Assembly: GCA_964468845.1 (NCBI GenBank)
Contig: CAYXWP010000001.1
Span: forward strand, 6,411-70,410
Length of the DNA stretch: 64,000 nt
Source of the DNA: an uncultured Candidatus Saccharibacteria bacterium
GTDB taxonomy: Bacteria; Patescibacteriota; Minisyncoccia; Phycocordibacterales; PALSA-1337
Direction of reading: 5' to 3'
This document shows, in pieces, positions 5,683 through 63,448 of the stretch. Numbering within the stretch: position 1 is the stretch's first letter; every line of letters begins with the position of its first letter. The translations under genes and the position numbers were made by a program. Below the pieces are notes generated by a model. The model did no database searches and was not told where the DNA came from. It saw nothing but the letters and a program-made list of their open reading frames with translations.

Positions 5683-6432
5683 TTATTTATAATTATCTTT
5701 TTCTTCTTTACTAAAGTGCTCCGTGGCGTATGACAGCATTACTCTAGGCATCTTTTTATAGTATTTATTCAAAAACTTTTTTTCAATATCTCTTGAAATC
5801 CTTTTGCCAACATCACGCAACATCCAACCGACCGCCTTGTGAATTAAATCATGCTTGTCAGACAGCAACATTTCCGCCAACTTAAATACATCCTTATATT
5901 CACCCGCTTTAATGAAAGCATGCGTAGAAATTATAGAGATCCTTCTTTCCCAAATATTTTTTGACCTAGCTAGCCTATACAAAACCGCCCTATCCCTGTC
6001 CCTATACTTATCATTATCATTATTAAGCAAATAATCACCAACAATGTAACTAGCTGACAAATCCACAAGATCCCAATTATTTATATATCTAGTGTTTTTT
6101 AAATAAAATTTATAAATCGCTTTCTTAATTTTTTCATCCTCTTTTTTCTTATCTTTTGTTTTCTTATTATTTGCTCTTTCATATTGCGCTACAAGTATTT
6201 CCAAAGCTGTAAGCCTAAATTCATGGACCTCACTCTCTAATAATTTCTGAATTACATCAAAATTGGCATCAATATATTTATGCGCAATCTTTCTGATTTT
6301 GGGTACAACTATTCCAATAAAAATATCTCCCTCCCCATACTGACCCTTGCCCGTCTTAAAATATCTTGAAAGCAGTTTGGCTTTCTTTGCGTCAGCGAAA
6401 CTATTTAAATCATTGGTTATTTCTTTTATCAC
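5683..6432 (-). CDS. DNA alkylation repair enzyme (AlkD/AlkC-like HEAT-repeat glycosylase family)
   Basis: Conserved pattern FRLTALEIL...WDLVDLSASYIVGDYL...LYRLARSKNIWERRISIISTHAFIKAG...DLIHKAVGWMLRDVGK, typical of the DNA_alkylation family. Confidence 0.7.
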   Translation of the reverse strand: MIKEITNDLNSFADAKKAKLLSRYFKTGKGQYGEGDIFIGIVVPKIRKIAHKYIDANFDVIQKLLESEVHEFRLTALEILVAQYERANNKKTKDKKKEDEKIKKAIYKFYLKNTRYINNWDLVDLSASYIVGDYLLNNDNDKYRDRDRAVLYRLARSKNIWERRISIISTHAFIKAGEYKDVFKLAEMLLSDKHDLIHKAVGWMLRDVGKRISRDIEKKFLNKYYKKMPRVMLSYATEHFSKEEKDNYK

Positions 6433-7170: not shown

Positions 7171-7764
7171 TCACGACAACTTTTCAATAATTTCTTGCCA
7201 AGAATTTACTCTGACTATGGGGTGCTTGGCATCATATTGATTATCGCATTGATTCCACGGCGCATTGAAAAGAAGTGCTGAAATTCCAACACCTAACACA
7301 TTTTCTACATTCTCCAAGTTATCATCGACAAATATGTCGACGCCCATTTCTTTGCACACATCTCCCTTTGAACGCCTTATGCCATTTCCAGAAAAATGAT
7401 TGGTAAAAACTATATTTTTAAAAGAATTCGGAAAATATTTATCAATCCATTCCGATGTCGCACCTCGAAGTGTTTCAGGCTTAGATGTAATAATAATTAA
7501 AGTGTTATTGTCTTTAAGTTTTTTAATAGCCTCAACTGCACCGAGAACTGGTACGGCATTCAAGTGTTCTGGTGTTGCATAGAAATCAACCACTCTTTTT
7601 ACAGCTTCTTCTTTTGAACAATTTAAAATGTCCGCATATTCAAATACAGTTAAATCATTCCGACAAATATTTGTACCATAAACACGATTATGATATGCGC
7701 AAAAAGCATTATTAAAATCTAATAAAACTTCGTCGAGATCGAGGCCGATTATTCTGGATTTCAT
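7171..7764 (-). CDS. HAD-superfamily 5'(3')-deoxyribonucleotidase-like hydrolase (NT5C family)
   Basis: HAD motif I GLDLDEVLLDF, motif II IIITSKP and motif IV DIFVDDN. The ATG at 7764 is used because the track's longer ORF (to 7839) overlaps the tRNA-Gln gene. Confidence 0.6.
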   Translation of the reverse strand: MKSRIIGLDLDEVLLDFNNAFCAYHNRVYGTNICRNDLTVFEYADILNCSKEEAVKRVVDFYATPEHLNAVPVLGAVEAIKKLKDNNTLIIITSKPETLRGATSEWIDKYFPNSFKNIVFTNHFSGNGIRRSKGDVCKEMGVDIFVDDNLENVENVLGVGISALLFNAPWNQCDNQYDAKHPIVRVNSWQEIIEKLS

Positions 7765-7767
7765 TTG

Positions 7768-7838
7768 CTGGGGGCCAGGGAATCGAACCCCAATACTATC
7801 CTTCAAAGGGATATGTCCTACCGTTAGACGAGCCCCCA
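7768..7838 (-). tRNA. tRNA-Gln (anticodon UUG)
   Basis: The reverse complement reads TGGGGGC-TC-GTC-TAACGGTAG-GAC-A-TATCC-CTTTGAA-GGATA-GTAT-TGGGG-TTCGATT-CCCTG-GCCCCCA-G. It has a 7-bp acceptor stem with U1-A72, a G73 discriminator, a GGTTCGATTCC T-arm and anticodon TTG. No CCA is encoded. Confidence 0.85.
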
Positions 7839-7898
7839 ATATTCTTTTGTCTATATAAAATACCTTAAAATTAAAGAAAATTCAAGTGTTTATCGAAA

Positions 7899-8348
7899 TT
7901 ACAAAGCCCTCTTTATCTCATCCTTAACCTTAAGTAGCTCCTCTTCCGCACTCGGCTCTCTATCCCCTGTCCTATAAAGCATACTTCTAGGATCATAGCC
8001 GAGTAAACCTGTGTCTCCCTTCTTTCGAGGAACAATATGTAAATGAAAATGTGGTACAGATTGTCCTGCAAGCTTGCCTTCATTCCAAACACAATTAAAA
8101 CCTTCTACGTCATAAAGCTTTTTTAAGGCATTCATTATTTTGTCTGCAAGTTCAAGAATTGCCGAACGTTCTTCTTTAGTTAAATCACTCAACTTAGCGA
8201 CACAACGAATGGGTGCAATCAAAGTATGCCCTGGAGTAATAGGAATATTAGTTGGGAAAGCCCACGCCAAGTCATTACTAATTATTTCTCTAGCTTTAAT
8301 TTCTGGCAGACTACAATATACGCACTTTTTTTCTAAATTGTTTTCCAT
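7899..8348 (-). CDS. HIT-family nucleotide hydrolase/transferase
   Basis: Histidine triad PHFHLHIVPR. Confidence 0.8.
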   Translation of the reverse strand: MENNLEKKCVYCSLPEIKAREIISNDLAWAFPTNIPITPGHTLIAPIRCVAKLSDLTKEERSAILELADKIMNALKKLYDVEGFNCVWNEGKLAGQSVPHFHLHIVPRKKGDTGLLGYDPRSMLYRTGDREPSAEEELLKVKDEIKRAL

Positions 8349-9426: not shown

Positions 9427-10485
9427 CTATTGTAGCATTTTCAAATATTCTTTAACAATTCCTTCAACCTCCTTCAAACCATCACTTTCCATTAGCTTCA
9501 CTCGCAATTCTTTCGCACCTTCCCAACCAGAAACATAAGCTTTGAAATGTTTTTTCATGTTTGCAAAATTCTTTACCTTACCAAGCTGCTTGTCGAAAAG
9601 TTTTGCATGTTCAAGCATCGCTTTTAGTCTTGTCTCAACGGGAATTTCCGCAGGTGTTTTGCCTGCAAAAAACCAAGGGTTGCCAAAAATTCCTCTTCCG
9701 ATCATTGCCCCATCACATCCACTTTCTTTTACTTTCTGGCGTGCATCCGCAAGACTTATAACATCACCATTTCCTATCAAAATAGTCTCTGGGGAAATGC
9801 GATTTCGAAGTTCAACAATCTTTGGCATTAAATCCCAATGTGCCGGAAAATCCGACATTTCTTTGCGAGTTCGCAAGTGTATCGTCAGCGCCGGCAACTT
9901 TTGCTCGAGTAAAAACTCAATCCAAGATAAATCAATTTTATTGTAACCAATTCTTGTTTTAACAGAAACTGGGATTTCTAGCCCCACATCCTTTACCCCC
10001 GCCCTCGCAGCCTCAATAATTTCCTTTGCAAGCTCAGGGTTCTTCATCATGCTCGCCCCTGCACCTTGTTTCTCTATAGATCGATCTGGACAACCCATAT
10101 TTATATCTATTCCATCAAAACCAAGTTTAGCAACTATTCCACAAGCTTCATGCATTTTGTCCGGGTGAGCAGAGAAAAGCTGTGCTACTATCGGCTTCTC
10201 TTTTTTTGAAAATTTTAAATCATTTAGCAAAACCTTTCTTCCGGCAGAGCAGAGCCCATCTGCAGAAACGAATTCAGTCCACATCACGTCTGGCTTGCCA
10301 TATTTCGCAAACATAGAACGAAAAGCCACATCAGTGACATTTGCCATAGGGGCAATAACAAAAACAGGCTTCTTGAGCTTTACCCAGAAGTTTAAACCGT
10401 CCACAGAACTATTTACACTGTGCACTGTGACTTTTTTAACATTCTTGACGTTTTTAGATTGAGTCTTCCCTTTCTTCATAGACAA
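9427..10485 (-). CDS. tRNA-dihydrouridine synthase (Dus family)
   Basis: FVIAPMANVTDVAFR, DGIDINMGCP and TIM-barrel FMN-binding motifs. It has a Lys-rich N-terminal extension. Confidence 0.85.
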   Translation of the reverse strand: MSMKKGKTQSKNVKNVKKVTVHSVNSSVDGLNFWVKLKKPVFVIAPMANVTDVAFRSMFAKYGKPDVMWTEFVSADGLCSAGRKVLLNDLKFSKKEKPIVAQLFSAHPDKMHEACGIVAKLGFDGIDINMGCPDRSIEKQGAGASMMKNPELAKEIIEAARAGVKDVGLEIPVSVKTRIGYNKIDLSWIEFLLEQKLPALTIHLRTRKEMSDFPAHWDLMPKIVELRNRISPETILIGNGDVISLADARQKVKESGCDGAMIGRGIFGNPWFFAGKTPAEIPVETRLKAMLEHAKLFDKQLGKVKNFANMKKHFKAYVSGWEGAKELRVKLMESDGLKEVEGIVKEYLKMLQ

Positions 10486-47816: not shown

Positions 47817-48272
47817 TCACACATGTTTCTCAATATTTTTAAAATCACCAAAAAGACAAATTGGGTCCATTGCGTGTATTTCTTCTAAATAAGCTGACTC
47901 TGTAGGTATGTCATTTGAAAGAAATATCTTTTTATCATTTACATAAGCCATTCCCATTTCCATCAGACAATTCCCTCCAATGTAATTTTTCTTACCTTTC
48001 TTCTCCAAATTTACAATCAAAATGGCATCACTCTCTAATATATGTTTGTAGTGTTGACGAATATAATCATGAGCGCGCTTAAAATCTGCAGTTTCAATTT
48101 GGCTCGCCCCTTCTTCTAAAATCGCCTGAACTTTACCATTTACATGATCCTCGTAATCCTGATGAATCCACCCATTGTAACCAAGTTCGCAAAGCTTATT
48201 CTTACTATCAACCATTTCATTCACAAAACTATTACTTCCTAATACGTATATTTTAGGGGGTTTATTTTTCAT
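47817..48272 (-). CDS. Nucleoside 2-deoxyribosyltransferase-like protein
   Basis: KIYVLGSNSF N-terminal strand and the C-terminal NYIGGNCLMEMGMAY..KKIFL motif of the NDT/YtoQ fold. Confidence 0.4.
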   Translation of the reverse strand: MKNKPPKIYVLGSNSFVNEMVDSKNKLCELGYNGWIHQDYEDHVNGKVQAILEEGASQIETADFKRAHDYIRQHYKHILESDAILIVNLEKKGKKNYIGGNCLMEMGMAYVNDKKIFLSNDIPTESAYLEEIHAMDPICLFGDFKNIEKHV

Positions 48273-48306
48273 AACAATATAATAATACAGATGTTATACT
48301 TAAACA

Positions 48307-48780
48307 ATGCAAAAGAAATGTGATCACACAAGTGTAGGAATGCTTGTTTGGAAGGATGAAAAACTTCTATTAATAGAGAGGAGGAAGTTTCCCTTTGGCT
48401 TCGCGATACCTGCTGGACACGTTGATGGGGATTCAACATTTGAGGACGCAGCAATACGAGAACTGAGAGAGGAAGTCGGCTTGGATTCTATCAATTTAGA
48501 ACCTGTTTATGATATAAAAAAAGAAAATCCATGCAGACGCGAGGACGGGACCTGGCATCACTGGAAAATATTTAAAACCGAAATTATTGGAGAGGGGGAA
48601 TTGAAACGTAGTGAAAGCGAGACGAAACAAGCAAATTGGTTTGATAAAGATCAAATACGCGCATTAGCTGAAAAAACTGCGAGATATTTTGATAAAAAAA
48701 TATCTGACGAGGAATGGGAGAAGAGTCCTGGGCTTGAACCAGTGATGTACGAGTTTTTCAAGGAATTAAAAATTATATAG
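48307..48780 (+). CDS. NUDIX hydrolase
   Basis: Nudix box GHVDGDSTFEDAAIRELREEVGL. Confidence 0.75.
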   Translation: MQKKCDHTSVGMLVWKDEKLLLIERRKFPFGFAIPAGHVDGDSTFEDAAIRELREEVGLDSINLEPVYDIKKENPCRREDGTWHHWKIFKTEIIGEGELKRSESETKQANWFDKDQIRALAEKTARYFDKKISDEEWEKSPGLEPVMYEFFKELKII

Positions 48781-48791
48781 AAAATATAAAC

Positions 48792-49208
48792 CTAAATACC
48801 GAAGGTTTCATCAATCTTTTGTTGCATCTCATTAAATGCCTGGTTATAAATATCAGGAATAAATATATCTAAATTCCCCGAGTTCCCTTTTTTTACAAAA
48901 ACCATAGCCACTTTTTTCTGAGCATTATTGCGACCATTATAGGTAGTTGTGTTAGACCCAACCTTACATTTAGTCTCGTAATTTGCATATATTGGCCACG
49001 CATCAAATTGTTTTATGTATGCACCCAAACTTACATTATCAAGAAAAGTTAATGCATTTGTTCCCTTACAGTTTCCAAAATCGCTAGACTCAATATATGT
49101 TTTTATCTTTGATTCAATACCGATAATTGAAGGTCTATTATTTGTAGTAAAATACCTTATCGCAAAGAATGCGCAAACCAAAATAACAATTCCCATTATG
49201 TATTTCAT
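48792..49208 (-). CDS. Hypothetical secreted protein
   Basis: N-terminal signal/TM. Confidence 0.3.
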   Translation of the reverse strand: MKYIMGIVILVCAFFAIRYFTTNNRPSIIGIESKIKTYIESSDFGNCKGTNALTFLDNVSLGAYIKQFDAWPIYANYETKCKVGSNTTTYNGRNNAQKKVAMVFVKKGNSGNLDIFIPDIYNQAFNEMQQKIDETFGI

Positions 49209-49349
49209 GTTATTTATTTTGTTTATTAGTTACTAATGTTAAGTATAATTTAGCATAATAATAGCATAATTTGAATATCAATAAAAAGAAAACCCACCTT
49301 GCGGAGGGTCGTGTGCAACAAACGAATGGCGAAAGCAAACTGCTGGGGG

Positions 49350-49685
49350 TTAATTAAGAACAGCTGAATCAACCCGAGCAATCTCTCTCCAGTAAAATGC
49401 TGGGAATACCCATCCACGCCTTGGAATTGAATAGAATGGTTTACGTTCTTGAAGTAGATAGTTGATCGCGCTTTCAAAATTGCCAGGTGCAAGTGGATCT
49501 TGAATCCAAAAACGAGGGTTGCTTCTTGCTGAAAGTAATGTAACAGTCGGAATACCGACATCAATATTTTCAGCAATTTCTCCAAAAAGAATACACGGCT
49601 CTCCATCCCCCAATGGAACACAGAGAATTGTGCAATTACTCGCAGCACATCGATGAGCCTCGATAATTTTAGTGAGATCAATCAT
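49350..49685 (-). CDS. Hypothetical protein (111 aa), GC-rich
   Basis: Preferred over the overlapping Leu-rich alternative frame 49250..49681. Confidence 0.3.
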   Translation of the reverse strand: MIDLTKIIEAHRCAASNCTILCVPLGDGEPCILFGEIAENIDVGIPTVTLLSARSNPRFWIQDPLAPGNFESAINYLLQERKPFYSIPRRGWVFPAFYWREIARVDSAVLN

Positions 49686-49861
49686 GAAAAAATGGGTTAG
49701 ATTGTTTCTCCATCCAGAATCAATCTACTAGATAGGTACTGATTAGTCAATTTTTTGTACGCGTCCATAACATGTGACGCAGGTTGTCCTATTGAAAAAC
49801 ACTGCAAAAGTCAAATGTGACTAAAAATTGGTCAACTTTTCAAAACTAGCATTCTGGACAA

Positions 49862-50326
49862 TCAACTCCAGAGCCCATTTTTTAATTCCTCCCTAATTTC
49901 CATCCAAATTTTCCCGATGTGATTTAAGCCCTCACCATCTATCCCATCATCCCAAAAGCCATCACCTGGTGGATAAGTCACGATATGCTTCACAATTTTT
50001 ACATCTCCAGAATTAATTAATGCTTTTATCACCTCTTCATGTTGCACGGCCTTAAGTTTCATAAGCTTCTTCATTACTAGGAGTTTATATTCTTCACTTT
50101 TAAATTCTGGAATTTGCAAATGCTTATATTTTGTAGAAACCTCCCAAGCCTTCACTGGGCTATGTGCATTAATAATTTCACTCCTTATTTTCTGATCCGT
50201 ATACCTTTGACATTGATATGCATGCTCTACAGTAGGATAAACAACGCCATCAATCTCTATCGCATGCGCCGTGTATGGTGAAAAATATATGTAAAATATT
50301 TCTAAAGGTAAAATTTCATTTTTCAT
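49862..50326 (-). CDS. NADAR (YbiA/DUF1768) family protein
   Basis: FYIYFSPYTAHAIEIDGVVYPTVEHAYQCQRY...GDGFWDDGIDGEGLNHIGKIWMEIR. Confidence 0.7.
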   Translation of the reverse strand: MKNEILPLEIFYIYFSPYTAHAIEIDGVVYPTVEHAYQCQRYTDQKIRSEIINAHSPVKAWEVSTKYKHLQIPEFKSEEYKLLVMKKLMKLKAVQHEEVIKALINSGDVKIVKHIVTYPPGDGFWDDGIDGEGLNHIGKIWMEIREELKNGLWS

Positions 50327-50333
50327 AAATTTC

Positions 50334-51239
50334 TTACAAATTTTTTAAGCCATTTATAAAATCACAAACCTCCTGCGCCAACGCATCTTCATCACCAAAA
50401 TATCCATGATTCGCATCACCAAGGATTTTTGTTTCAACTCTTGAACTATTAGTAGCCGCATTTTTTATTCTACTCATCACTTCCTCCACCGGCACGACGA
50501 TAGCATCATCCTTCCTCCCCATAATTACAAAAAGTGGTTGTGTAATTTTACTTAAAACCTCCAACTTATCCTCAGGCTTATATAAATTAAAAATTCCTGT
50601 CTTAGACTTTTCGCCAAAAAGACTTAAATATGTTGAGGCACTTAGTAGATAATCATTCCAAAGTAATTTTGAAAGCAATTCACTCCCTCTACCACTCTCA
50701 GCTTTTTCATTTGCTTCTTTAATAAATTCCTCAAACCCCTCACCTTCATCGCGAGCCAATCCGTGCATATCAGCAGGCGATAACAACAAAATTGAATTAA
50801 TTCTTTTGTCATTTGCCTCAGTGATATAGAATACAATTTTTGATGTGCCTAAACTGTGCCCAGAAAGATTAATTTTATTGAAACCTTGGCCCGCCACAAA
50901 GTCCATCGCGGCACCGATATCAAAAATGCAATCCTCAAACTTTTCATAAGTGCTTCCAATCCGAACAAAACTCTTTTTGCTATCTTTTTTGCTATCTATC
51001 GTTTTAGTTAAATCTTTAATTGCCTCACATCCCCTATTATTAAATACAAAAAGGGCAACACCTTCACTAGTAAGTTTTTTTGCAATTGAATCTACGAACG
51101 GGTTTTCATAAAAATTTCCACCCATTCCGTGAACGTGCACTAGAATTTCTTTTGAGTCACTAACACCGTCAGGCTCATAAAGCAAACCTACTAGTTCCAA
51201 GCCGTCTTTTGTAATGATGCGATGTAAGGTAGTTTTCAT
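50334..51239 (-). CDS. Alpha/beta hydrolase
   Basis: HVHGMGGN oxyanion region, GHSLGTS nucleophile elbow and a C-terminal His. Confidence 0.65.
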   Translation of the reverse strand: MKTTLHRIITKDGLELVGLLYEPDGVSDSKEILVHVHGMGGNFYENPFVDSIAKKLTSEGVALFVFNNRGCEAIKDLTKTIDSKKDSKKSFVRIGSTYEKFEDCIFDIGAAMDFVAGQGFNKINLSGHSLGTSKIVFYITEANDKRINSILLLSPADMHGLARDEGEGFEEFIKEANEKAESGRGSELLSKLLWNDYLLSASTYLSLFGEKSKTGIFNLYKPEDKLEVLSKITQPLFVIMGRKDDAIVVPVEEVMSRIKNAATNSSRVETKILGDANHGYFGDEDALAQEVCDFINGLKNL

Positions 51240-51263
51240 AAAAGTATTATATATAATAACAAA

Positions 51264-51593
51264 TTACTCCACATCTACCCAAGCTTGCGCTTCATAGTTA
51301 TATGATGACAACAAATCACTACTGCAAGGCATATCATTTTCATAGTGAATAGCGTGAATTTCAGTTGCACTAGTAGAATTTCCATCGGGATAGTTTCCTT
51401 TTCTTAAATACAAATACTCTGTAAAACTACCTGGTTTATCACCCTCAAGTTTTGTTTCCAAACGATAAAGACCTTTGTCATCTGATTTTTCACTGGTTAT
51501 GACCATATTTTCCGCAAAACGTGAAATTATCTCTAGAACAATTTCTTTTGTTGGTATCCATTCTATAGTTGTTTCAAATCGGCTATTTTCCAT
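51264..51593 (-). CDS. Hypothetical protein
   Basis: ORF only. Confidence 0.3.
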   Translation of the reverse strand: MENSRFETTIEWIPTKEIVLEIISRFAENMVITSEKSDDKGLYRLETKLEGDKPGSFTEYLYLRKGNYPDGNSTSATEIHAIHYENDMPCSSDLLSSYNYEAQAWVDVE

Positions 51594-51598
51594 AATAT

Positions 51599-52144
51599 CT
51601 ATTTTAATAAATCATCTGGCGTTGATAAATCATAACCCAATTCCTTTGCTCTAAGCGCAGATTTTTTCAAAAAATAGACCCAATGATCGTAATCCTTGTT
51701 CTCATTATGTGCTATCCAACTAGAAAGAATGTCCTCTGCACTTACCCAATCGAGTGTAAACCTTTCGTGATCCTCTAGTTTGGTATCCACTAGTTTTCTA
51801 CTTTTTAATATTACAAGAAAACATGTAGCCATTGCTGACCTGTTTACATTCTTTAAAACATTATGAAAATGTGTAAACACTTTAGCAATTTTCTCAACGC
51901 ACAGAAAATCATACAGGCCACTTTCTTCAACAACTTCTCTCAAAACGCCCTCCTGAATATCTTCTTTATCGCTAACCCCACCAGAAAAAAGTATGTACCT
52001 ACCCCTTTTTATTTGATCACCAACTGCATACTTTTGTGTTTCTGGATCAAAGACAACAGCACATCCGCCATCGCGACGCTCCTCATTTTCTCGCTTAATT
52101 CCAAATTCTAGAATGCCATCTAAAGTCATGTAGCTATTATACAC
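51599..52144 (-). CDS. NUDIX hydrolase (divergent)
   Basis: Nudix-like GGVSDKEDIQEGVLREVVEESGL. Confidence 0.5.
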   Translation of the reverse strand: MYNSYMTLDGILEFGIKRENEERRDGGCAVVFDPETQKYAVGDQIKRGRYILFSGGVSDKEDIQEGVLREVVEESGLYDFLCVEKIAKVFTHFHNVLKNVNRSAMATCFLVILKSRKLVDTKLEDHERFTLDWVSAEDILSSWIAHNENKDYDHWVYFLKKSALRAKELGYDLSTPDDLLK

Positions 52145-52166
52145 TCATCAATGTTGTTTGTAATGC

Positions 52167-52586
52167 TCATCCCCTATACCCCTCCGCGTATATCTTAAAA
52201 TTATTCAAAATCGCTTGCCAGCCCACCCGTTGCTTATCCTCAGGATTAATATTTTCCAATTCAAAATTTTCTACAATTCGTATACCTGTATTTAATTGAT
52301 AAAAAAATACCGAAACTTTTCTATTATCATCTAAAATATATGCTATTACTTTATTTATCTCAACAATACTGTAAGTGCCAGAAAAATCAAAAGAATCTGA
52401 TTTATCCTTTGCAGACATAGTAAAAACAAAACGTCCCCCAGCTTTGAGGTCATTCTCGGCATTTGGACATTCCCAATCATACGATGCATGCAACCATTTC
52501 ATAACATGCTCTGGTTTGGTCCATAAATCCCAAACCAGCGACAATTCTCTATTTACTGTCGTCTCAACGTTTATAGATTTAAACAT
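52167..52586 (-). CDS. SRPBCC (AHSA1 / polyketide-cyclase-like) family protein
   Basis: MFKSINVETTVNRELSLVWDLWTKPEHVMKW... typical of the family. Confidence 0.55.
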   Translation of the reverse strand: MFKSINVETTVNRELSLVWDLWTKPEHVMKWLHASYDWECPNAENDLKAGGRFVFTMSAKDKSDSFDFSGTYSIVEINKVIAYILDDNRKVSVFFYQLNTGIRIVENFELENINPEDKQRVGWQAILNNFKIYAEGYRG

Positions 52587-52728
52587 TTGAATTACCCCTT
52601 ATCACCCTAATCAAGATCATGATAATAGCAACTACCAACAAAACATGAATAAAACCTCCTATAGTGTAGGAAGTAATCAAGCCCAGCAACCAAAGAATTA
52701 CCAAAATGATAGCTATTGATGTTAGCAT
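52579..52728 (-). CDS. Small membrane protein, lmo0937-like family (49 aa); absent from the ORF track
   Basis: MLTSIAIILVILWLLGLITSYTIGGFIHVLLVVAIIMILIRVIRGNSNV. It overlaps the SRPBCC start by 8 nt. Confidence 0.45.
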   Translation of the reverse strand: MLTSIAIILVILWLLGLITSYTIGGFIHVLLVVAIIMILIRVIRGNSNV

Positions 52729-52916: not shown

Positions 52917-54221
52917 TCAATCAATCGCGCCCGAAATGGAATTGGTCGCCTTATCGCCAATATCATGTCGCATCTGCTTGCCATTGAAATGGATTTCGTT
53001 GGCAGCAGCATAAGCACGTTTCTTAGCTATATGAAGATTTTCTCCCCAAGCAGTGACTCCTAGGACTCGTCCCCCATTGGTACCAAACATCTGGCCCATG
53101 CGCTTAGTCCCAGCATGAAAGATTTTGACATTGTCCATTTTGGATACTCGATCGAGCCCCCAAATCAACTGATCGTTACTTTGCCCTTTCGGATACCCCT
53201 TTGAGGCAAGCACGATGCAGACCGAGGCACCCGGAAACCAGTCCAATTTAACATGGCTGGAACCGCCGTCCGACGAGCATGCATATAGAACTTCAAACAG
53301 ATCGGAGCCAAGCCTGGACAGATATGCTTGAGCTTCCGGATCACCAAAGCGGGCATTAAATTCGAGAACCTTCAAACCCTTGTCCGTGAGCATAACCCCT
53401 GGATAGAGTAAACCTCGATAATCGATACCTTCTGTTACGCATCCATCATGCCAGTGTGCAATTATATCCTCATTGATTTTCTTGAGTAGCCCATTGTGAA
53501 CAAATGGCGTGGGAAAATATGCACCCATACCGCCTGTCATGGGACCTTGATCACCATCAAGAAAATGCTTATGATCTTGAGAAGTCGGAAATAGATACAC
53601 GTTCCTCGCGTTGCAAAGAATGTGAAGTGAGATCTCTGTTCCAACAAGCCGTTCCTGTATAAGAATTGGAGAGTCCGGCTTATTCGCAAACTTAGCATCA
53701 ATCATCTCAATGGCCTCCTCAATGAAATCTGGTAAACTCACACCCTTGCCCCTACATAATCCATCAGATTTAATGACACATCGCCCACCAAGTTTTTCAA
53801 CGTAATGTTTTGCAGGTTCTGGGTCGCTAAACACTTCCCCATTTGGCGATGGAATACCATAACGCTTCATGAAGTTGTGAGAATAAACCTTGGATGACTC
53901 AAGTTGTGCAGCCTTCTGATTTGGTCCGAATATGGCAAACTTTTTCCTTGCAAAGAGATCCGCAATACCGATTGCAAGCGGATCGTCAGGACCGACAACA
54001 GTCAGTGTTGGTTTCTTCTCACAAGCAAAGCTAAAAAGTCGTGGCAAATCTGTGACCTTAATACCAACGCATTGCACGGAATTGCCGTTCTTCAGTCGCT
54101 CTTGTGCTATACCAGGATTACCTGGAGCACACCACAGTTCCGTAACTTGTGGTGATTGTGCCAATGACCACACTAACGCATGTTCCCTACCACCTCCGCC
54201 AATAACCAGTACAGTGCTCAT
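52917..54221 (-). CDS. purD: Phosphoribosylamine--glycine ligase (GAR synthetase), copy 1; GC-rich
   Basis: MSTVLVIGGGGREHALVW and an ATP-grasp domain with LEFNARFGDPE. The start is trimmed to the Met at 54221 because the track's N-terminal extension is AT-rich leader. Confidence 0.9.
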   Translation of the reverse strand: MSTVLVIGGGGREHALVWSLAQSPQVTELWCAPGNPGIAQERLKNGNSVQCVGIKVTDLPRLFSFACEKKPTLTVVGPDDPLAIGIADLFARKKFAIFGPNQKAAQLESSKVYSHNFMKRYGIPSPNGEVFSDPEPAKHYVEKLGGRCVIKSDGLCRGKGVSLPDFIEEAIEMIDAKFANKPDSPILIQERLVGTEISLHILCNARNVYLFPTSQDHKHFLDGDQGPMTGGMGAYFPTPFVHNGLLKKINEDIIAHWHDGCVTEGIDYRGLLYPGVMLTDKGLKVLEFNARFGDPEAQAYLSRLGSDLFEVLYACSSDGGSSHVKLDWFPGASVCIVLASKGYPKGQSNDQLIWGLDRVSKMDNVKIFHAGTKRMGQMFGTNGGRVLGVTAWGENLHIAKKRAYAAANEIHFNGKQMRHDIGDKATNSISGAID

Positions 54222-54295
54222 AATTTTATTTCCTTTCGAAGAACATTCACCATTGACTATACTGATTTTTAGCAAAAAAACAACCGATAGAAAAC

Positions 54296-54844
54296 TTACT
54301 CCACCAATGTAATCCTTGGCCACCTTTCCTTCCACTTCTTTTTTTCCATCCTTTCTTTGATTACATCTATCCTATCTTTAAAAACTGGACTCGGTCTTAC
54401 AATAAAATTTACAAGGTCACTTATCCCATGTGGGGCAACTAAGACCAAGTTGCCATTTTTATCCATGCTCACACCTACCGCAGTAGCTGTCTCTGGCCAC
54501 TTTGAAATTGCATCTTCAGTTGATGTATATGGAGATAAACCATTCCACTTATTTGCATAGAATTCGTTTACAACTTCCCATTCAATTCCAGTCTCCTCTT
54601 GAAGCTTGGTAGACAATTTTTTATCCGCCTCCTCGTCATTACCGTTTGGATCAAAATATACCAAATCGATGTCAGTAATATCGGCAGTTGTATTCTCAAT
54701 CCCTGACAAATGATTCCATATTTTACTTCTCACAAAGCCAGCACCGATAACCCAATCGGGTAAATTTAGTGTAGAAGCAATTGTAATAATTTTCATCATC
54801 CATTCGTCTTGTTTTATTAAATTGTGTATGTCTTGTTCGGTCAT
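54296..54844 (-). CDS. Nucleotidyltransferase-family protein (NTP_transf_6 / DUF925-like)
   Basis: WVIGAGFVRSKIWNHL...DIDLVYFD. Confidence 0.5.
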   Translation of the reverse strand: MTEQDIHNLIKQDEWMMKIITIASTLNLPDWVIGAGFVRSKIWNHLSGIENTTADITDIDLVYFDPNGNDEEADKKLSTKLQEETGIEWEVVNEFYANKWNGLSPYTSTEDAISKWPETATAVGVSMDKNGNLVLVAPHGISDLVNFIVRPSPVFKDRIDVIKERMEKKKWKERWPRITLVE

Positions 54845-54984: not shown

Positions 54985-56475
54985 ATGGCTCACATCCCTC
55001 AGTCAGTACTTGAAAAACAAGCAGTTATCGAAGGCCTCAGTCTGCGTGGTCGTGGAAAAGTTCGCGAATCGTATGACCTGCTCGGGCATCCAAACGAAAT
55101 GCTAGTGGTGGCATCAAACCGCTGTAGCATCTTCGATTTTGTTTTACCAGCCTTGGTCCGCCTTAAAGGAGAAATCCTGACGGCGATGAACCACTTTTGG
55201 GTGACGAATGTCATCGGTGAAATCTTTGAAACCGACCTCGTCGCCTGCGGATCCGGCGTGGATCTGTTTCTGCCAGAGGGTCTGCGTGGTAATGCGGAAC
55301 TTCAGAAGCAAGCCACGGTGGTGAGAATTCTCCCCGCTCCAGACGTTGAGGACGTCGTACGTTTTATCCTCACTGGAGGTGGTTGGGAAAGCTACAAGGC
55401 AACGCAAAGCATCTGTGGGCATCGCTTTCCGAATGGCCTCAGTGATGGAAGCAGGCTTCCATTTCCAGTTTACACCCCAACAACGAAAGCGGCCGTCGGT
55501 CATGATGAACACATCACTGCCGACAGTGTCGCCGAACGTTATGGTGTAAAACGCGAAAGGATGTCTCTGCAGGTAGCTGGGCTTATCGCAAGTTACGCTG
55601 CCAGTCGTGGAATTATTCTCGCAGACACCAAGTTTGAGTTCAGTCTGAGCAATGGGAAGTTGATTTTGGCGGATGAAAAAGGAACCCCGGACTCGAGCCG
55701 ATTCGTCGACAAGGCGACCTGGGAAAAACTCGCGTCAAAGGGCAAGTTTCCGCCCTCACTCGACAAACAATACATTCGTGATTGGGGCATCAAAGCAGGG
55801 GTCAAAATACGAGATCCCCGTAAAGCTGAGGATCTAGCCTTTGTTGACTCGCTTGAAGTGCCGGAACGAGTCACAGATATGACCACCAGCATTTACCGCT
55901 ATGTCTTCTGGAGGCTGACCGGCAAGCAAATCGAGTATTATCAGCGTGACATCTTGGGAATCGCCATGCAGACACCCACACGACGCAAGATCCATGTCGT
56001 GGTCGGAAGCGAAAGCGACTTACCGCAAATTGTCAGGGGGGTTGATTCCATGCGAGTTGTTGCTGACGTGGGTGTAAGCGCCATCAGTTGTCATCGCAAC
56101 CCGGATGAACTGCGACGTTTCGTTCGTGATGAACTAACCACGACTGATGTAGTCATCGCCGGCGCTGGGAAAGCTGCAGCATTACCTGGAATTATCAAGA
56201 GCTACTTGTGCGAACTCGGCAGCCATGTGCCAGTCATTGGTGTTGCCCTTGATTCTGAAAACAGGAAGGACAATGATGCAGCAATATATTCGATTGAATG
56301 CTTGCCAGGGCAACCTGTCGAACTTGATGCCGACGGCAATGCCTATTTCGGCCCAATCGGTTTCATGAAGGCTTGTAGTGCCGCTTCGTGGGATGAGTTC
56401 CTCCCGAAGGCAGTCGAACACAAACCTGCGAAAATCCATATCGAGGGGCAACTTGGGCGGTCTTATCCCCACTAA
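54985..56475 (+). CDS. Bifunctional SAICAR synthetase (PurC) / N5-CAIR mutase-type PurE fusion protein; GC-rich
   Basis: The N-terminal about 300 aa carry PurC motifs (RGRGKVRESYDL, SNRCSIFDF, FWV). The C-terminal about 170 aa carry PurE motifs (HVVVGSESDLPQ, SCHRNPDEL, IAGAGKAAALPG, PVIGVAL). The AGAGxAAxLPG form is class I-like. Confidence 0.8.
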   Translation: MAHIPQSVLEKQAVIEGLSLRGRGKVRESYDLLGHPNEMLVVASNRCSIFDFVLPALVRLKGEILTAMNHFWVTNVIGEIFETDLVACGSGVDLFLPEGLRGNAELQKQATVVRILPAPDVEDVVRFILTGGGWESYKATQSICGHRFPNGLSDGSRLPFPVYTPTTKAAVGHDEHITADSVAERYGVKRERMSLQVAGLIASYAASRGIILADTKFEFSLSNGKLILADEKGTPDSSRFVDKATWEKLASKGKFPPSLDKQYIRDWGIKAGVKIRDPRKAEDLAFVDSLEVPERVTDMTTSIYRYVFWRLTGKQIEYYQRDILGIAMQTPTRRKIHVVVGSESDLPQIVRGVDSMRVVADVGVSAISCHRNPDELRRFVRDELTTTDVVIAGAGKAAALPGIIKSYLCELGSHVPVIGVALDSENRKDNDAAIYSIECLPGQPVELDADGNAYFGPIGFMKACSAASWDEFLPKAVEHKPAKIHIEGQLGRSYPH

Positions 56476-58445: not shown

Positions 58446-58943
58446 TTACTTAATTAATAAATTAATAATACTATGTAGAGACGTAACATATTTATCAGGA
58501 TAATTTTTCATATCAAGAAGAAGATCATCTTTATTAATCCATTTAATTTGCTCGACTTCATCCTCTTGAATAACAAATTGCTCAATGGATCTATCTATCT
58601 CACAAAGAAACCACTGACCAAAATATTTTCTTGGCGATACAGAGTGTTGTTTCGGACCTAATTCTAATTTTATACCTGTTACTCCAATTTCTTCCTCAAG
58701 TTCTTTATACGCATTTGACTCGTATGTCTCTCCTTCTTCAACAGTTCCGGCAGCAGCAGGTCCCCACTTTCCTGGATCCTTACTTTTTGTAAATTTCCTC
58801 TGAGCGATTAGTATTTCACCTTGAGAATTGACCAACCAAATACCAGTACATCTATATGTTTCTTTTAAATAATCCACTTCATCACGATATTTTGTTCCCA
58901 CTGGAACATCATTATCATCTACGATAACTACCTTCTTTTTCAT
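58446..58943 (-). CDS. NUDIX hydrolase (IDI-like architecture)
   Basis: Nudix box AAGTVEEGETYESNAYKELEEEIGV. Confidence 0.65.
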   Translation of the reverse strand: MKKKVVIVDDNDVPVGTKYRDEVDYLKETYRCTGIWLVNSQGEILIAQRKFTKSKDPGKWGPAAAGTVEEGETYESNAYKELEEEIGVTGIKLELGPKQHSVSPRKYFGQWFLCEIDRSIEQFVIQEDEVEQIKWINKDDLLLDMKNYPDKYVTSLHSIINLLIK

Positions 58944-60228: not shown

Positions 60229-61524
60229 TCAGTGGACCGCCAAGGACTTGGCACCGATATCTTTCCGATACTGTGCACCTTCGAAGTCGATGCACTCCAC
60301 ACCGTTGTAAGCGTGATCGAGTGCTTCCTGTAGCGTTGCACCGATGCCGGTGACACCGAGGACACGTCCGCCAGATGTGACGAGATGGCTATCAGTTTGC
60401 TTGGTACCTGCATGGAACACGACGACGCCAGGAAGAATCTCGGCGTTATCGATGCCTGTGATCGGCAGACCTTTTTTGTAGTTAGGCGATGGGTAGCCAC
60501 CGGACGCCATTACAATGCAGGCAGCGAAGCCCGGATTCCACTCGACGTTGATCTCATGGAGTCGTCCTTCGACGCACGCCTCCAAGATGTCGAGCAGATC
60601 TGTTTTCAAGAGACACATGTAAACCTGTGTCTCCGGATCGCCGAATCGCGCATTGAACTCGAGGACCATGGGTCCCGCTTCTGGCATCTTGAGTCCGGGA
60701 TAAAGCAAACCGACGAACGGCGAGCCTTTTTCGCGGAGCCCGCTAAGAATTGGGCCGATGATCTGTTCACTCACCGCATTGTGGTCTTTGAACCACGGGA
60801 CCGGAGCAATCGTACCCATGCCACCGGTGTTCGAACCATCGTCGCCATCGAATGCCGGCTTATGATCCTGCGCTGACGGAAACAGCTTGAACGACTTGCC
60901 ATCGCAGAACGCATGGATAGACACTTCCTGTCCGCCTACATATTCTTCGATGATGACCTCATCGCCAGCGCTTCCATGAAGGTGCTTCACCATGACCTCG
61001 TCGAGAGCCTGTTCAGCTTCGGTAAAATCACGGCAGACGTACGCTCCTTTTCCGAGAGCGAGACCTGATGCCTTCACGACAATCGGTAGTCCAAAGTACG
61101 TAGCAAAATGCCTGCGCACGTCCTCGAGGACTTGAGTGTGGTCCGTGTAAACATCGAACAATGCTGTCGGCACGCCGCAATCTTTCATGAGACGTTTCGA
61201 GAACACCTTCGATGCCTCGATTTGAGCCGCTGCCTTGGTGGGACCGAAGATGCGAAGGCCTTTTGCCTGAAATGCATCCACGATGCCGAGTGCGAGCGGA
61301 TCGTCTTGGCCGACGATAGTGAATTCGATCCCTTCCTTGAGTGCGAAGGCTAAGAGGCCGTCAACGTCCGTAGCTTTCACTGGAACGTTTTCTGCGATCT
61401 GAGCCGTGCCAGCATTACCTGGAGCGACGAAGAGTTTGCCGAGTCGGGGGGATTGGCGAAGTTTCCACGCAATTGCGTGTTCACGGCCGCCACCTCCGAC
61501 CAGTAGGACTTTCATTTGGTTCAT
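60229..61524 (-). CDS. purD: Phosphoribosylamine--glycine ligase (GAR synthetase), copy 2; strongly GC-rich
   Basis: MKVLLVGGGGREHAIAW and an ATP-grasp domain with LEFNARFGDPE. AAGGAG lies 8 nt upstream of the ATG. Roughly 40-45% identical to copy 1 by eye. Confidence 0.9.
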   Translation of the reverse strand: MNQMKVLLVGGGGREHAIAWKLRQSPRLGKLFVAPGNAGTAQIAENVPVKATDVDGLLAFALKEGIEFTIVGQDDPLALGIVDAFQAKGLRIFGPTKAAAQIEASKVFSKRLMKDCGVPTALFDVYTDHTQVLEDVRRHFATYFGLPIVVKASGLALGKGAYVCRDFTEAEQALDEVMVKHLHGSAGDEVIIEEYVGGQEVSIHAFCDGKSFKLFPSAQDHKPAFDGDDGSNTGGMGTIAPVPWFKDHNAVSEQIIGPILSGLREKGSPFVGLLYPGLKMPEAGPMVLEFNARFGDPETQVYMCLLKTDLLDILEACVEGRLHEINVEWNPGFAACIVMASGGYPSPNYKKGLPITGIDNAEILPGVVVFHAGTKQTDSHLVTSGGRVLGVTGIGATLQEALDHAYNGVECIDFEGAQYRKDIGAKSLAVH

Positions 61525-62782: not shown

Positions 62783-63448
62783 TTATCCCAAATGGGTATG
62801 GTCGTTGTAAATCCAAAGTCTCCAACTATCCTCCTGTCCAAAACTTGATTGGTAACGGATAACCGTAATGCCAGTATTTTCCGTATGTGCGCTCTTTTGA
62901 AATTTAAAGAATATTTCTTCAGACAGTGAATCACCGACAAGTATCCGGGCAATCAATGTACGCAAGAAAAATCCATGAGTAATTACAACAATTGATTGTT
63001 CTGATTTGTCCTGCAGAAATTTAAGTGCCTTATCAGCGCGTTTTAAAATATCATCAAAATTTTCTCCGTCAGAAATACGCATGCCTGAGATATATAAACT
63101 CTTCTCCCATTCATTCCAAATATCATTTGCCACCTTATCCTCATGAGGTTTACCATTTATAGAAGTTGGCTTCACCCTTTCGACAAATAGATTTGAAAAT
63201 TCATACGTTTTCCCAGTAGCTTTAGCAATAAAGTCGGCAGTTTCTTTCGCCCTTTCTAATGGACTTGTGATTAAGACATCGAATCGTAATTTAGCTATTC
63301 TCTTTGCTATAGACTCTGCTTGTTTTTTGCCAAGCATGCTAAGTGGAGAATCGGGAGATTGGAATACAGAAGTAGCATTATGTTCGCTCTGTCCGTGACG
63401 AATAAAATAAACTATCTTTTTGATATTTTTATCAAGTTTGACATTCAT
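62783..63448 (-). CDS. Histidine phosphatase (phosphoglycerate mutase-like) family protein
   Basis: VYFIRHGQSEHN catalytic RHG motif and a downstream His. Confidence 0.7.
   Translation of the reverse strand: MNVKLDKNIKKIVYFIRHGQSEHNATSVFQSPDSPLSMLGKKQAESIAKRIAKLRFDVLITSPLERAKETADFIAKATGKTYEFSNLFVERVKPTSINGKPHEDKVANDIWNEWEKSLYISGMRISDGENFDDILKRADKALKFLQDKSEQSIVVITHGFFLRTLIARILVGDSLSEEIFFKFQKSAHTENTGITVIRYQSSFGQEDSWRLWIYNDHTHLG

Follow-up and report, generated by a model that had tools for sequence, protein, structure and literature searches.

Which genes in a crowded stretch of chromosome work together, and which merely lie side by side? The question is raised by nine adjacent small genes in the window, the 64-kb stretch of Candidatus Saccharibacteria DNA analysed here, most of which a preliminary description read as a possible ADP-ribose or nucleotide-derivative processing module. 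Judging from the genes present, their folds and conserved residues, and the statistics of their adjacency, we lean, without strong conviction, towards a lineage-specific aggregation of mostly independent small hydrolase genes in a CPR gene-flux zone, holding two two-enzyme units and no single ADP-ribose module. These would most likely be small units of an N-glycosidase and a pyrophosphatase, acting in nucleotide sanitation or salvage among unrelated passengers.

Gene content of the block

The block begins with a 151-amino-acid protein of the NDT superfamily (nucleoside 2-deoxyribosyltransferase / DNPH1-like fold) that lacks a Pfam model (47817..48272, minus strand; hereafter NDT-like). A 34-bp spacer, read from the sequence (48273..48306), separates it from the divergent NudixA gene (48307..48780, plus strand; 157 amino acids, Pfam NUDIX 7.5e-19). 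The remaining genes lie on the minus strand: a familyless 138-amino-acid protein with a hydrophobic N-terminal segment and a native coding signal (48792..49208); a 111-amino-acid protein of a small uncharacterised family (49350..49685); a YbiA-like NADAR of 154 amino acids (49862..50326; Pfam NADAR 1.7e-16); a DUF1749-like alpha/beta hydrolase of 301 amino acids (50334..51239; Pfam DUF1749 7.8e-11); a 109-amino-acid ORFan (51264..51593); NudixB (51599..52144; 176–181 amino acids, the gene caller favouring the ATG at 52129 and 176 residues; Pfam NUDIX 6e-7); and a 139-amino-acid SRPBCC/AHSA1 ligand-binding-fold protein (52167..52586; Pfam AHSA1 4e-16). Also on the minus strand are a third Nudix gene, NudixC (58446..58943; 165 amino acids, Pfam NUDIX 1.5e-18), a histidine phosphatase (62783..63448; Pfam His_Phos_1 3e-33) and NT5C (7171..7764; Pfam 4e-18). 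NudixC is flanked by genes for a Peptidase_S51 protein and a methyltransferase, and NT5C and a HIT gene are further small nucleotide hydrolases elsewhere in the window.

The open reading frames of the preliminary description exist at or near the positions it gave, and the profile searches that it called for bear out its identifications of three Nudix proteins, NADAR, the alpha/beta hydrolase, SRPBCC, the histidine phosphatase and NT5C. Its two proteins of no recognisable family remain so: the 111-amino-acid protein has about 19 remote homologues and no Pfam match, and the other is an ORFan. It omitted the 138-amino-acid gene, and its end of the cluster, 52728, lies 142 bp past the SRPBCC start.

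Pfam finds exactly three Nudix matches in the window, all above the PF00293 gathering score. NudixB carries the canonical box GX5EX7REUXEEXGU, NudixC shows KE instead of RE, and NudixA keeps an intact REx2EE core, with the first Glu of its box replaced by Ser. Because Nudix genes make up only about 1.3% of ORFs in related genomes, three in one window are a local excess above chance. Five genes form a co-directional string, SRPBCC–NudixB–ORFan–hydrolase–NADAR, with gaps of 22, 5, 24 and 7 bp; upstream of SRPBCC, its first gene, a terminator-like hairpin follows purD (52898-52871, minus strand).

A recurrent NDT-like and Nudix cassette

The neighbourhood is mostly unconserved, tight spacing alone is weak evidence in CPR genomes, whose genes are densely packed and mostly run in one direction, and the window holds other small nucleotide hydrolases (NT5C, HIT) outside the cluster. 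These features would suit a chance juxtaposition of independent housekeeping genes with no functional adjacency at all, an explanation that we nevertheless consider improbable for the cluster taken whole. In related loci (80 NDT-like-centred and 44 NADAR-centred, 124 in all), Nudix genes account for 52 of 218 ORFs (24%) within 1 kb of an NDT-like gene, compared with 6 of 462 (~1.3%) farther out (Fisher p = 1e-21), a statistic that, like the NADAR one below, draws on metagenomic loci that are not fully phylogenetically independent. Of the unique loci, 37 have at least 700 bp of flank on either side, and in 24 of these a same-strand Nudix gene adjoins NDT-like, mostly across gaps of 1–20 bp. The partner is usually a NudixA orthologue, with 33 such genes adjoining NDT-like in other loci (median identity 59%). 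Other neighbours vary, the commonest other family reaching only 7 of 80 loci (73 unique), so that inheritance of a conserved gene order does not account for the link. A 291-amino-acid Nudix–NDT protein, found in two samples of one lineage, is a true gene fusion; elsewhere Nudix is flanked by tandem NDT paralogues, one type of which exceeds the PF05014 gathering score. Together these data strongly support a real, recurrent link between NDT-like and Nudix genes. Recurrent neighbours of the cassette include UDG and an ATP-cone nuclease, and NudixC is only distantly related (~31% identity) to a 185-amino-acid Nudix type that partners NDT-like elsewhere. The window's own pair is divergent, not co-directional, a layout that recurs only in locus L119, with similar spacing (35 bp). 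On either side a −10-like hexamer precedes the start codon by 6 nt, an arrangement that L119 shares, and the 34-bp spacer may hold back-to-back promoters for leaderless mRNAs.

The NDT-like family comprises about 520 homologous clusters, mostly from Patescibacteria. The window protein matches neither PF05014 nor PF15891 at E ≤ 0.1, nor any NCBIfam model, and cassette paralogues in relatives score 31.2 bits (PF05014 gathering score 28.8) and 21.4 bits. It has an NDT/Rcl-type Rossmannoid fold, and its putative catalytic residues Glu105 and Tyr9 are invariant (E105 in 120/120 homologues). E105 aligns with the Glu of the PF05014-positive paralogue, which itself aligns with the Glu of ELG in two NDTs of solved structure, 6evs and 8pqp; E105 follows strand 4, the place of the superfamily's Glu nucleophile, and would thus be catalytic. 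A GS motif after the first strand presumably corresponds to that of DNPH1. DNPH1/Rcl, MilB/BcmB and LOG all cleave an N-glycosidic bond. Within the NDT/DNPH1 (Rcl)/MilB-BcmB superfamily, the NDT-like family differs in carrying Gly where true NDTs have Asp before the Glu, and in its coupling, sometimes by fusion, to Nudix. The closest PDB match of NudixA is Thermus thermophilus Ndx1, an Ap6A hydrolase, at only 1e-7.

NDT-like and NudixA (Unit A) form a conserved, mostly patescibacterial cassette, for which we infer the following substrates and reaction order. NudixA would turn a nucleoside di- or triphosphate or NDP-X into a nucleoside 5′-monophosphate, and Glu105 of NDT-like, positioned by Tyr9, would then cut the N-glycosidic bond, yielding free base and (deoxy)ribose 5-phosphate. 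Such a unit could remove non-canonical nucleotides, or recycle bases and sugar phosphates, in an organism that lives by salvage. The proposed chemistry resembles, by analogy only, sanitation by a MutT/MTH1-class Nudix enzyme followed by the dNMP N-hydrolase DNPH1; the NDT-like and NudixA genes are paired or fused, whereas to our knowledge the two enzymes of known MutT/MTH1 and DNPH1 systems are neither in an operon nor fused. Salvage-dependent cells need nucleotide sanitation (PMC12887539).

A different assignment, which we judge unlikely, makes NDT-like an NDT/TIR-like glycohydrolase that frees nicotinamide from NAD+ (or a derivative) and NudixA an ADP-ribose pyrophosphatase that clears the ADP-ribose product; with NADAR, the locus would turn over NAD and ADP-ribose. 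The top structural and sequence bridges lead instead to true NDTs through PF05014-positive paralogues, the UDG and ATP-cone nuclease neighbours are DNA- or deoxynucleotide-oriented, and the specificity matches of NudixA all fall far under family cutoffs. Nudix equivalog matches in NCBIfam are far under theirs (for example NAD+ diphosphatase, 31.9 bits versus 158). NADAR and NDT-like are also otherwise unlinked: NDT-like lies near NADAR in 1 of 44 NADAR-centred loci, and no NADAR occurs within 10 kb in any of the 80 NDT-like-centred loci.

NADAR, Lys113 and neighbouring Nudix genes

NADARs are ribosyl N-glycosidases (PMC11543638, PMC11125620). The window protein passes PF08719 (61.4 bits, cutoff 35.1), has E. 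coli YbiA as its best PDB match (2b3w, 7e-19) and scores below the cutoff of the riboflavin-intermediate N-glycosidase model TIGR02464 (62.7 versus 73.7 bits). Its orthologues, annotated where named as Paceibacteria/Parcubacteria, are 65–86% identical across 44 species, an unusual degree of conservation over CPR lineages. Its domain stands alone, as in E. coli YbiA (2B3W) and P. nicotianae NADAR, spans about 150 residues without an N-terminal extension, and retains Asp122 (=D130) and Trp125 (=W133). The first catalytic Glu of the superfamily is invariant (E34, =E43/E48/E88); seven residues further on, at the K50/K95 position, R41 provides the basic side chain in 119/120 members; NADAR K95R keeps its activity in vitro (PMC11543638).

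The YbiA subfamily is further defined by a Glu in the last strand (E125) that contributes to catalysis (PMC11543638, PMC11125620). Here the window clade departs from it: two alignments made with HMMER and one with MAFFT pair E125 with Lys113, and this Lys is invariant in the clade (120/120 and 40/40 members). The equivalent residue is Asp in BC4488 and DarG1 and His in phage gp30.3, and of 55 viral NADARs, 54 hold E in this column and one holds H. The clade also has a four-residue insertion after K113 and Asp in place of Gly134, and it lies outside LexA-type, riboflavin and ART contexts. Lys in place of the catalytic Glu, Asp or His suggests that the substrate of this clade is probably not the canonical one.

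Nudix genes are enriched around NADAR as well, making up 15 of 145 ORFs (10%) within 1 kb and 8 of 616 farther out (p = 1e-6). They occur within 2.5 kb of a NADAR orthologue in 13 of 44 species (binomial p = 7e-6), invariably on its strand and several across gaps of 5–30 bp, and NUDIX ranks first in a Pfam tally of genes within two positions of NADAR (16/139). Loci L013 and L047 carry NudixB orthologues (65% and 63% identity) immediately upstream of NADAR; the end of each coding sequence abuts the start of NADAR or overlaps it (6–7 bp to the tblastn match). NADAR-adjacent Nudix genes are nevertheless diverse and non-orthologous across species, which points to a partnership that is loose and not specific. 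We therefore regard the NADAR and Nudix link as real and recurrent with moderate confidence. In L028, a histidine phosphatase orthologue (52% identical) lies 6 bp upstream of NADAR. In close relatives, NADAR has DinB and an alkyltransferase-like DNA_binding_1 gene as neighbours, and a Y-family polymerase is encoded about 4 kb away.

NADAR and NudixB, in one co-directional string and probably co-transcribed, would form Unit B, in which NADAR cuts the ribosyl N-glycosidic linkage of an ADP-ribosyl-type or riboflavin-intermediate-type adduct and Nudix then splits the resulting pyrophosphate. The ADP-ribose and nucleotide theme of the preliminary description survives to the extent that both pairs fit N-glycosidic plus pyrophosphate cleavage, and both fit its suggestion of nucleotide salvage in an auxotrophic symbiont; a single ADP-ribose module does not emerge.

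A bolder view, which we hold only tentatively, is that the NDT-like/Nudix cassette and the Lys-type NADAR clade represent two uncharacterised but strongly conserved patescibacterial enzyme systems: a CPR-specific nucleotide-processing pathway with a novel substrate, made up of Nudix and a divergent NDT-fold N-glycosidase that are sometimes fused, and a Lys-type NADAR subfamily whose active site has been rewired and which acts with Nudix on an ADP-ribosyl-like adduct outside the range of known NADARs. If so, either could be central to how obligate scavengers handle salvaged or host-derived modified nucleotides or an ADP-ribosylating attack.

Block conservation, passengers and gene flux

The preliminary description also raised the possibility of an anti-ADP-ribosylation module for counter-defence or repair. 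Extended from NDT-like to SRPBCC, such a module would reverse or detoxify ADP-ribosylation, whether of nucleic acids or of small molecules, and all its members would serve one pathway. Five co-directional genes with gaps of 5–24 bp, probably one transcript, are in keeping with it, as are the DNA-repair-type genes beside NADAR in close relatives. In vitro, NADARs undo the ADP-ribosylation of guanine and cytidine (PMC11543638, PMC12945103), and viral NAD/ADP-ribose-processing networks combine NADAR and Nudix domains with Rossmannoid N-glycosidase (SLOG) domains (Iyer et al. 2022, PMC9503650). Yet the nine-gene block was found only on contigs of one organism (a Paceibacteria groundwater MAG). Homologues of the alpha/beta hydrolase (searched by phmmer), SRPBCC and the three uncharacterised proteins (138-amino-acid, 111-amino-acid and ORFan) number zero in the 44 NADAR-centred species-level loci, and zero in all 124 related loci. 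Mutation of the catalytic acidic residue of NADARs abolishes de-ADP-ribosylation, and the window NADAR does not have this residue. ART, Macro and TIR Pfam domains are absent from 41–64 kb, where Sir2 was likewise not found; PADLOC detected no defence component, the defence-system model NF053876, whose cutoff is 240 bits, scored 54, and the 111-amino-acid protein has no ART-like fold or similarity and no invariant catalytic-type residues. The neighbourhood data thus largely refute a single module, to which we assign a low probability, and its anti-ADP-ribosylation role finds no positive support. Conservation of the neighbourhood, which the preliminary description had set as its refutation test, gives a split result: the block is not conserved, and the two pairs recur.

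The viral Macro-NADAR-SLOG-Nudix networks (PMC9503650) share with the window the co-location of NADAR, Nudix and a Rossmannoid N-glycosidase-type domain and a common logic of N-glycosidic and pyrophosphate cleavage, but the window is a cellular CPR chromosome without Macro, ARG or ART, its block is unconserved, and viral NADARs are only ~30% identical to its NADAR, with Glu at the key site. DarT1-NADAR (DarTG1) and YarT-YbiA resemble the window in that a NADAR gene is followed by a small uncharacterised ORF; they differ in that the window has no adjacent ART-fold gene or PADLOC match and its NADAR has Lys for the catalytic Asp/Glu. A DarTG1 or YarT-YbiA toxin–antitoxin or NADAR anti-phage identity was rejected, since there is no adjacent ADP-ribosyltransferase and no defence-model match.

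The alpha/beta hydrolase, SRPBCC, ORFan, 111- and 138-amino-acid genes would accordingly be passengers in the aggregation that we favour. Chance juxtaposition is the best description for these five genes; for the two pairs it is contradicted by the Nudix enrichment around each anchor, the Nudix–NDT fusion and partners that stay orthologous over many loci with differing other neighbours. Given the tight spacing of the five-gene string, its passengers may yet be expressed together and linked in function in this organism. The alpha/beta hydrolase lies 7 bp upstream of NADAR, and a different alpha/beta family (Ser_hydrolase) occurs near NADAR in 3–4 of 44 loci. The ORFan fits tightly into the space between the NudixB and hydrolase genes, and among 5.8e9 proteins its sole match is itself; codon usage is native in both 49350-49685 and 51264-51593, with a strong in-frame signal in the latter. 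The 111-amino-acid protein has a confident predicted fold without a solved structural neighbour. The 138-amino-acid protein, without a Pfam, NCBIfam or PADLOC match, is a lineage-specific passenger and probably secreted or membrane-bound. GC content of the nearby purD and purC-purE genes is foreign (0.52–0.55 versus 0.35). One related locus, L041, keeps the window's order of histidine phosphatase (60% identical), Ser_hydrolase, one further gene, NADAR and NDT-like in compact form, and about 12 kb is inserted in the window.

Gene content and conservation of the cluster

The region is best explained as a set of small hydrolase genes that have aggregated in one lineage and include two genuine two-enzyme units, and what is new here is an unannotated NDT-like/Nudix cassette and a Lys-type NADAR. 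Nine ORFs occupy 47.8–52.6 kb of the window, which has a low GC content (~0.35) and identical counterparts among the groundwater-metagenome contigs of PRJNA292723. The genes listed in the preliminary description exist, and Pfam bears out the following families: NUDIX for NudixA (48307–48780, +) and NudixB (51599–52144, −), NADAR (49862–50326, −), a DUF1749-type alpha/beta hydrolase (50334–51239, −) and AHSA1/SRPBCC (52167–52586, −), together with a third NUDIX gene (NudixC, 58446–58943), His_Phos_1 (62783–63448) and NT5C (7171–7764, −). The whole 64-kb window has no Nudix genes besides NudixA, NudixB and NudixC. Profile searches agree that no family can be assigned to ORFs 49350–49685 (−, 111 aa) and 51264–51593 (−, 109 aa), and we add an overlooked ORF at 48792–49208 (−), whose 138-aa product has a hydrophobic segment at its N terminus. 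All three of these ORFs have native in-frame codon usage. The 111-aa protein has a confident structure model yet no solved structural neighbour, and its homologues sit on contigs too short for their neighbourhoods to tell us anything. The 109-aa protein matches itself alone among 5.8 billion proteins; its gene has a strong native coding signal and is wedged between NudixB and the alpha/beta hydrolase with gaps of 5 bp and 24 bp, at a position where two other species have NudixB directly abutting NADAR.

The exact arrangement of the cluster is confined to contigs from the same organism. In the loci fetched with NADAR as anchor (44 with a full-length match), tblastn and iterated HMMs found no homologues of the alpha/beta hydrolase, the SRPBCC protein or the 111-aa, 109-aa and 138-aa proteins, and all-against-all clustering revealed a highly variable NADAR neighbourhood. 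Among 80 metagenome loci anchored on the NDT-like gene, none has NADAR within 10 kb. The nine genes therefore do not form a conserved module. The earlier proposal of a single ADP-ribose or nucleotide-derivative processing module survives in part: NDT-like/Nudix and NADAR/Nudix links recur across genomes, and the nine-gene block does not. Annotating that block as an ADP-ribose or defence system would be unwarranted. We also rejected a mobile element or prophage island, as there are no meaningful repeats and no tRNA or other RNA features nearby, and the GC content and codon usage of the cluster are native; the NADAR clade is moreover absent from viral contigs, where its relatives are only ~30% identical. 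A YarT-like ADP-ribosyltransferase (ART) toxin downstream of NADAR was likewise dropped, because the candidate lacks both an ART fold and invariant residues of a catalytic type.

An NDT-like family with a Nudix partner

CPR/Patescibacteria rely on scavenged nucleotides, and many of their conserved small proteins lack annotation. The family of the 151-aa NDT-like protein (47817–48272, −) comprises 522 clusters, none with a Pfam annotation, and its named sources are almost all Patescibacteria. By sequence alone, searches of Pfam, NCBIfam and PADLOC and phmmer against the PDB returned chance matches only, as did a 40-sequence profile against the PDB, and hhalign against an approximate human DNPH1 sequence gave no significant match (E = 0.16). 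The window protein itself thus lies outside Pfam-level family membership. Paralogues that other genomes encode within this cassette do reach Pfam PF05014, one of them at 31.2 bits, above the gathering score. The window family aligns with a PF05014-type paralogue (hhalign E = 1.6e-4) with Glu105 opposite a paralogue Glu that in turn aligns to the ELG Glu of solved NDTs, which we take to be the nucleophile position. Tyr9, Gly12, Ser13 and Glu105 are invariant in 118–120 of 120 homologues. The PF05014 paralogue, the hhalign match and the aligned Glu uphold the NDT-fold call of the preliminary description as correct, with Glu105 as the probable catalytic residue.

Genomic context ties this family strongly to Nudix hydrolases. 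Across the 80 metagenome loci (73 unique), Nudix genes make up 52/218 ORFs up to 1 kb away from the NDT-like gene and 6/462 farther out (Fisher p = 1e-21). Of the 37 unique loci whose flanks both extend for at least 700 bp, 24 have an adjacent same-strand Nudix gene, mostly 1–20 bp away or overlapping, 16 have a second NDT paralogue, and 29 have one or the other; the usual layouts are NDT129-Nudix155-NDT147 and NDT145-Nudix185-NDT148. The partners include 33 orthologues of NudixA (median identity 59%), and two loci from independent samples (L075 and L076) encode a 291-aa Nudix-NDT gene fusion, Rosetta-stone evidence for the partnership. The link is not inherited synteny, because the remaining genes around the cassette differ between loci: even the most frequent of them, which encode an ATP-cone/Mrr_cat protein and a UDG-family glycosylase, occur in only 7 loci each. 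These UDG-superfamily and ATP-cone + Mrr_cat nuclease-like proteins are found at L064 10939–11544, L066 8663–9508 and five further loci each. Our literature searches turned up no account of an NDT-Nudix cassette in CPR. A family of >500 clusters lacking a Pfam model can now be given a fold, a conserved Nudix partner and a residue that is probably catalytic.

In the window, the NDT-like gene and NudixA are divergent across a 34-bp spacer (48273–48306), a layout shared by related locus L119, where the spacer is 35 bp long (9484–9518). Each start codon has a −10-like hexamer exactly 6 nt upstream (TATACT/TATTAT in the window, TATACT/TATAAT in L119), which suggests that both spacers hold back-to-back promoters for leaderless transcripts. 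A scan for promoters gave no more than shuffled sequence did.

Taking as a guide DNPH1, MilB/BcmB and LOG, which cleave N-glycosidic bonds, we propose that the pair acts sequentially: the Nudix enzyme would make a nucleoside 5′-monophosphate and the NDT-fold enzyme would then cleave its glycosidic bond. Such action would fit nucleotide-pool sanitation, a necessity in salvage-dependent cells (PMC12887539). A pairing of TIR-like NADase and ADP-ribose pyrophosphatase, acting on NAD+/ADP-ribose, is an unlikely reading of the same cassette. All substrates that we assign to the NDT-like protein, NudixA, NADAR and its Nudix neighbours are putative, and both the NDT-like family and the Lys-type NADAR are open to concrete, cheap biochemistry.

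A Lys-type NADAR and its neighbours

The window NADAR is YbiA-like (2b3w match, 7e-19), scores below the TIGR02464 cutoff and belongs to a clade with a mean column identity of 79% over 25 species; its nearest relatives, like those of the NDT-like protein, are in Paceibacteria/Parcubacteria MAGs. NADAR subfamilies are defined by a single catalytic residue of the final strand: YbiA-type proteins have Glu there, DarT1-associated ones Asp and phage ones His. Its mutation abolishes guanine de-ADP-ribosylation (PMC11543638, PMC11125620, PMC12945103). Two HMMER alignments place Lys113 of the window protein opposite YbiA E125. Lys occupies this position in 120/120 database homologues and 40/40 genome loci, and the same column in 55 viral NADARs holds E in 54 and H in 1. 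Glu34, Arg41 (at the K50/K95 position), Asp122 and Trp125 are kept in the clade. A very conserved clade thus breaks the Glu/Asp/His rule that underlies known de-ADP-ribosylation chemistry, and the substitution argues for a non-canonical substrate. We came across no published account of a Lys-type NADAR.

The association of NADAR with Nudix genes is moderate. Our anchor set comprised 46 loci from different GTDB species, 44 with a full-length match. Nudix ORFs account for 15/145 within 1 kb of NADAR versus 8/616 farther out (p = 1e-6), and 13/44 species have one within 2.5 kb (binomial p = 7e-6). A Pfam scan of 139 genes within two positions of NADAR ranked NUDIX first with 16, followed by Ser_hydrolase and CYTH with 4 each. 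These Nudix genes share the strand of NADAR, often lie 5–30 bp away and are of many non-orthologous types, at times two or three in a row. NudixB orthologues (63–65% identity) lie directly upstream of NADAR in two loci (L013 and L047); in the window, the 109-aa ORF and the alpha/beta hydrolase sit between them. N-glycosidic cleavage followed by pyrophosphate cleavage would match a known NAD/ADP-ribose theme (PMC9503650).

In the closest relatives the NADAR gene sits directly against genes for a DNA_binding_1 protein (MGMT C-terminal, alkyltransferase-like) and a DinB-family protein, with a Y-family polymerase also nearby, and in another relative it overlaps a 392-aa Exo_endo_phos-Nudix fusion (L051 7206–8486 and L050 6830–8447), neighbours that hint at a DNA-damage context.

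Purine-synthesis genes and the other end of the window

Histidine phosphatase orthologues adjoin NADAR in locus L028 and lie near it in L041, where the order HisPhos - Ser_hydrolase - x - NADAR - NDT-like is compact; the window has the same order stretched by ~12 kb. Between its histidine phosphatase and NADAR string lie two purD (GARS) copies and a purC-purE (SAICAR synthetase + AIR carboxylase) fusion (52917–54335, −; 54985–56475, +; 60229–61524, −), whose GC content is 0.45–0.55 and whose GC3 reaches 0.59, against a genome GC of 0.35. These are probably a recent horizontal gain of purine-synthesis genes by a CPR bacterium, and the ~12-kb stretch fits accretion in a gene-flux zone. An NTP_transf_6 nucleotidyltransferase gene (54296–54844, −) and the long purD ORF (52917–54335, −) share 40 bp at the 5′ end of the latter; the true purD start is probably further downstream, because this ORF has a GTG start and a ~40-aa N-terminal extension ahead of the GARS_N domain. 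At the other end of the window, genes for an AlkD-like DNA alkylation repair enzyme (5683–6432), the NT5C deoxyribonucleotidase (7171–7764) and a HIT-family hydrolase (7899–8348), all on the minus strand, are clustered. The mechanical ORF 7171–7839 covers tRNA-Gln (7767–7838), and the start of NT5C must therefore lie at 7764.
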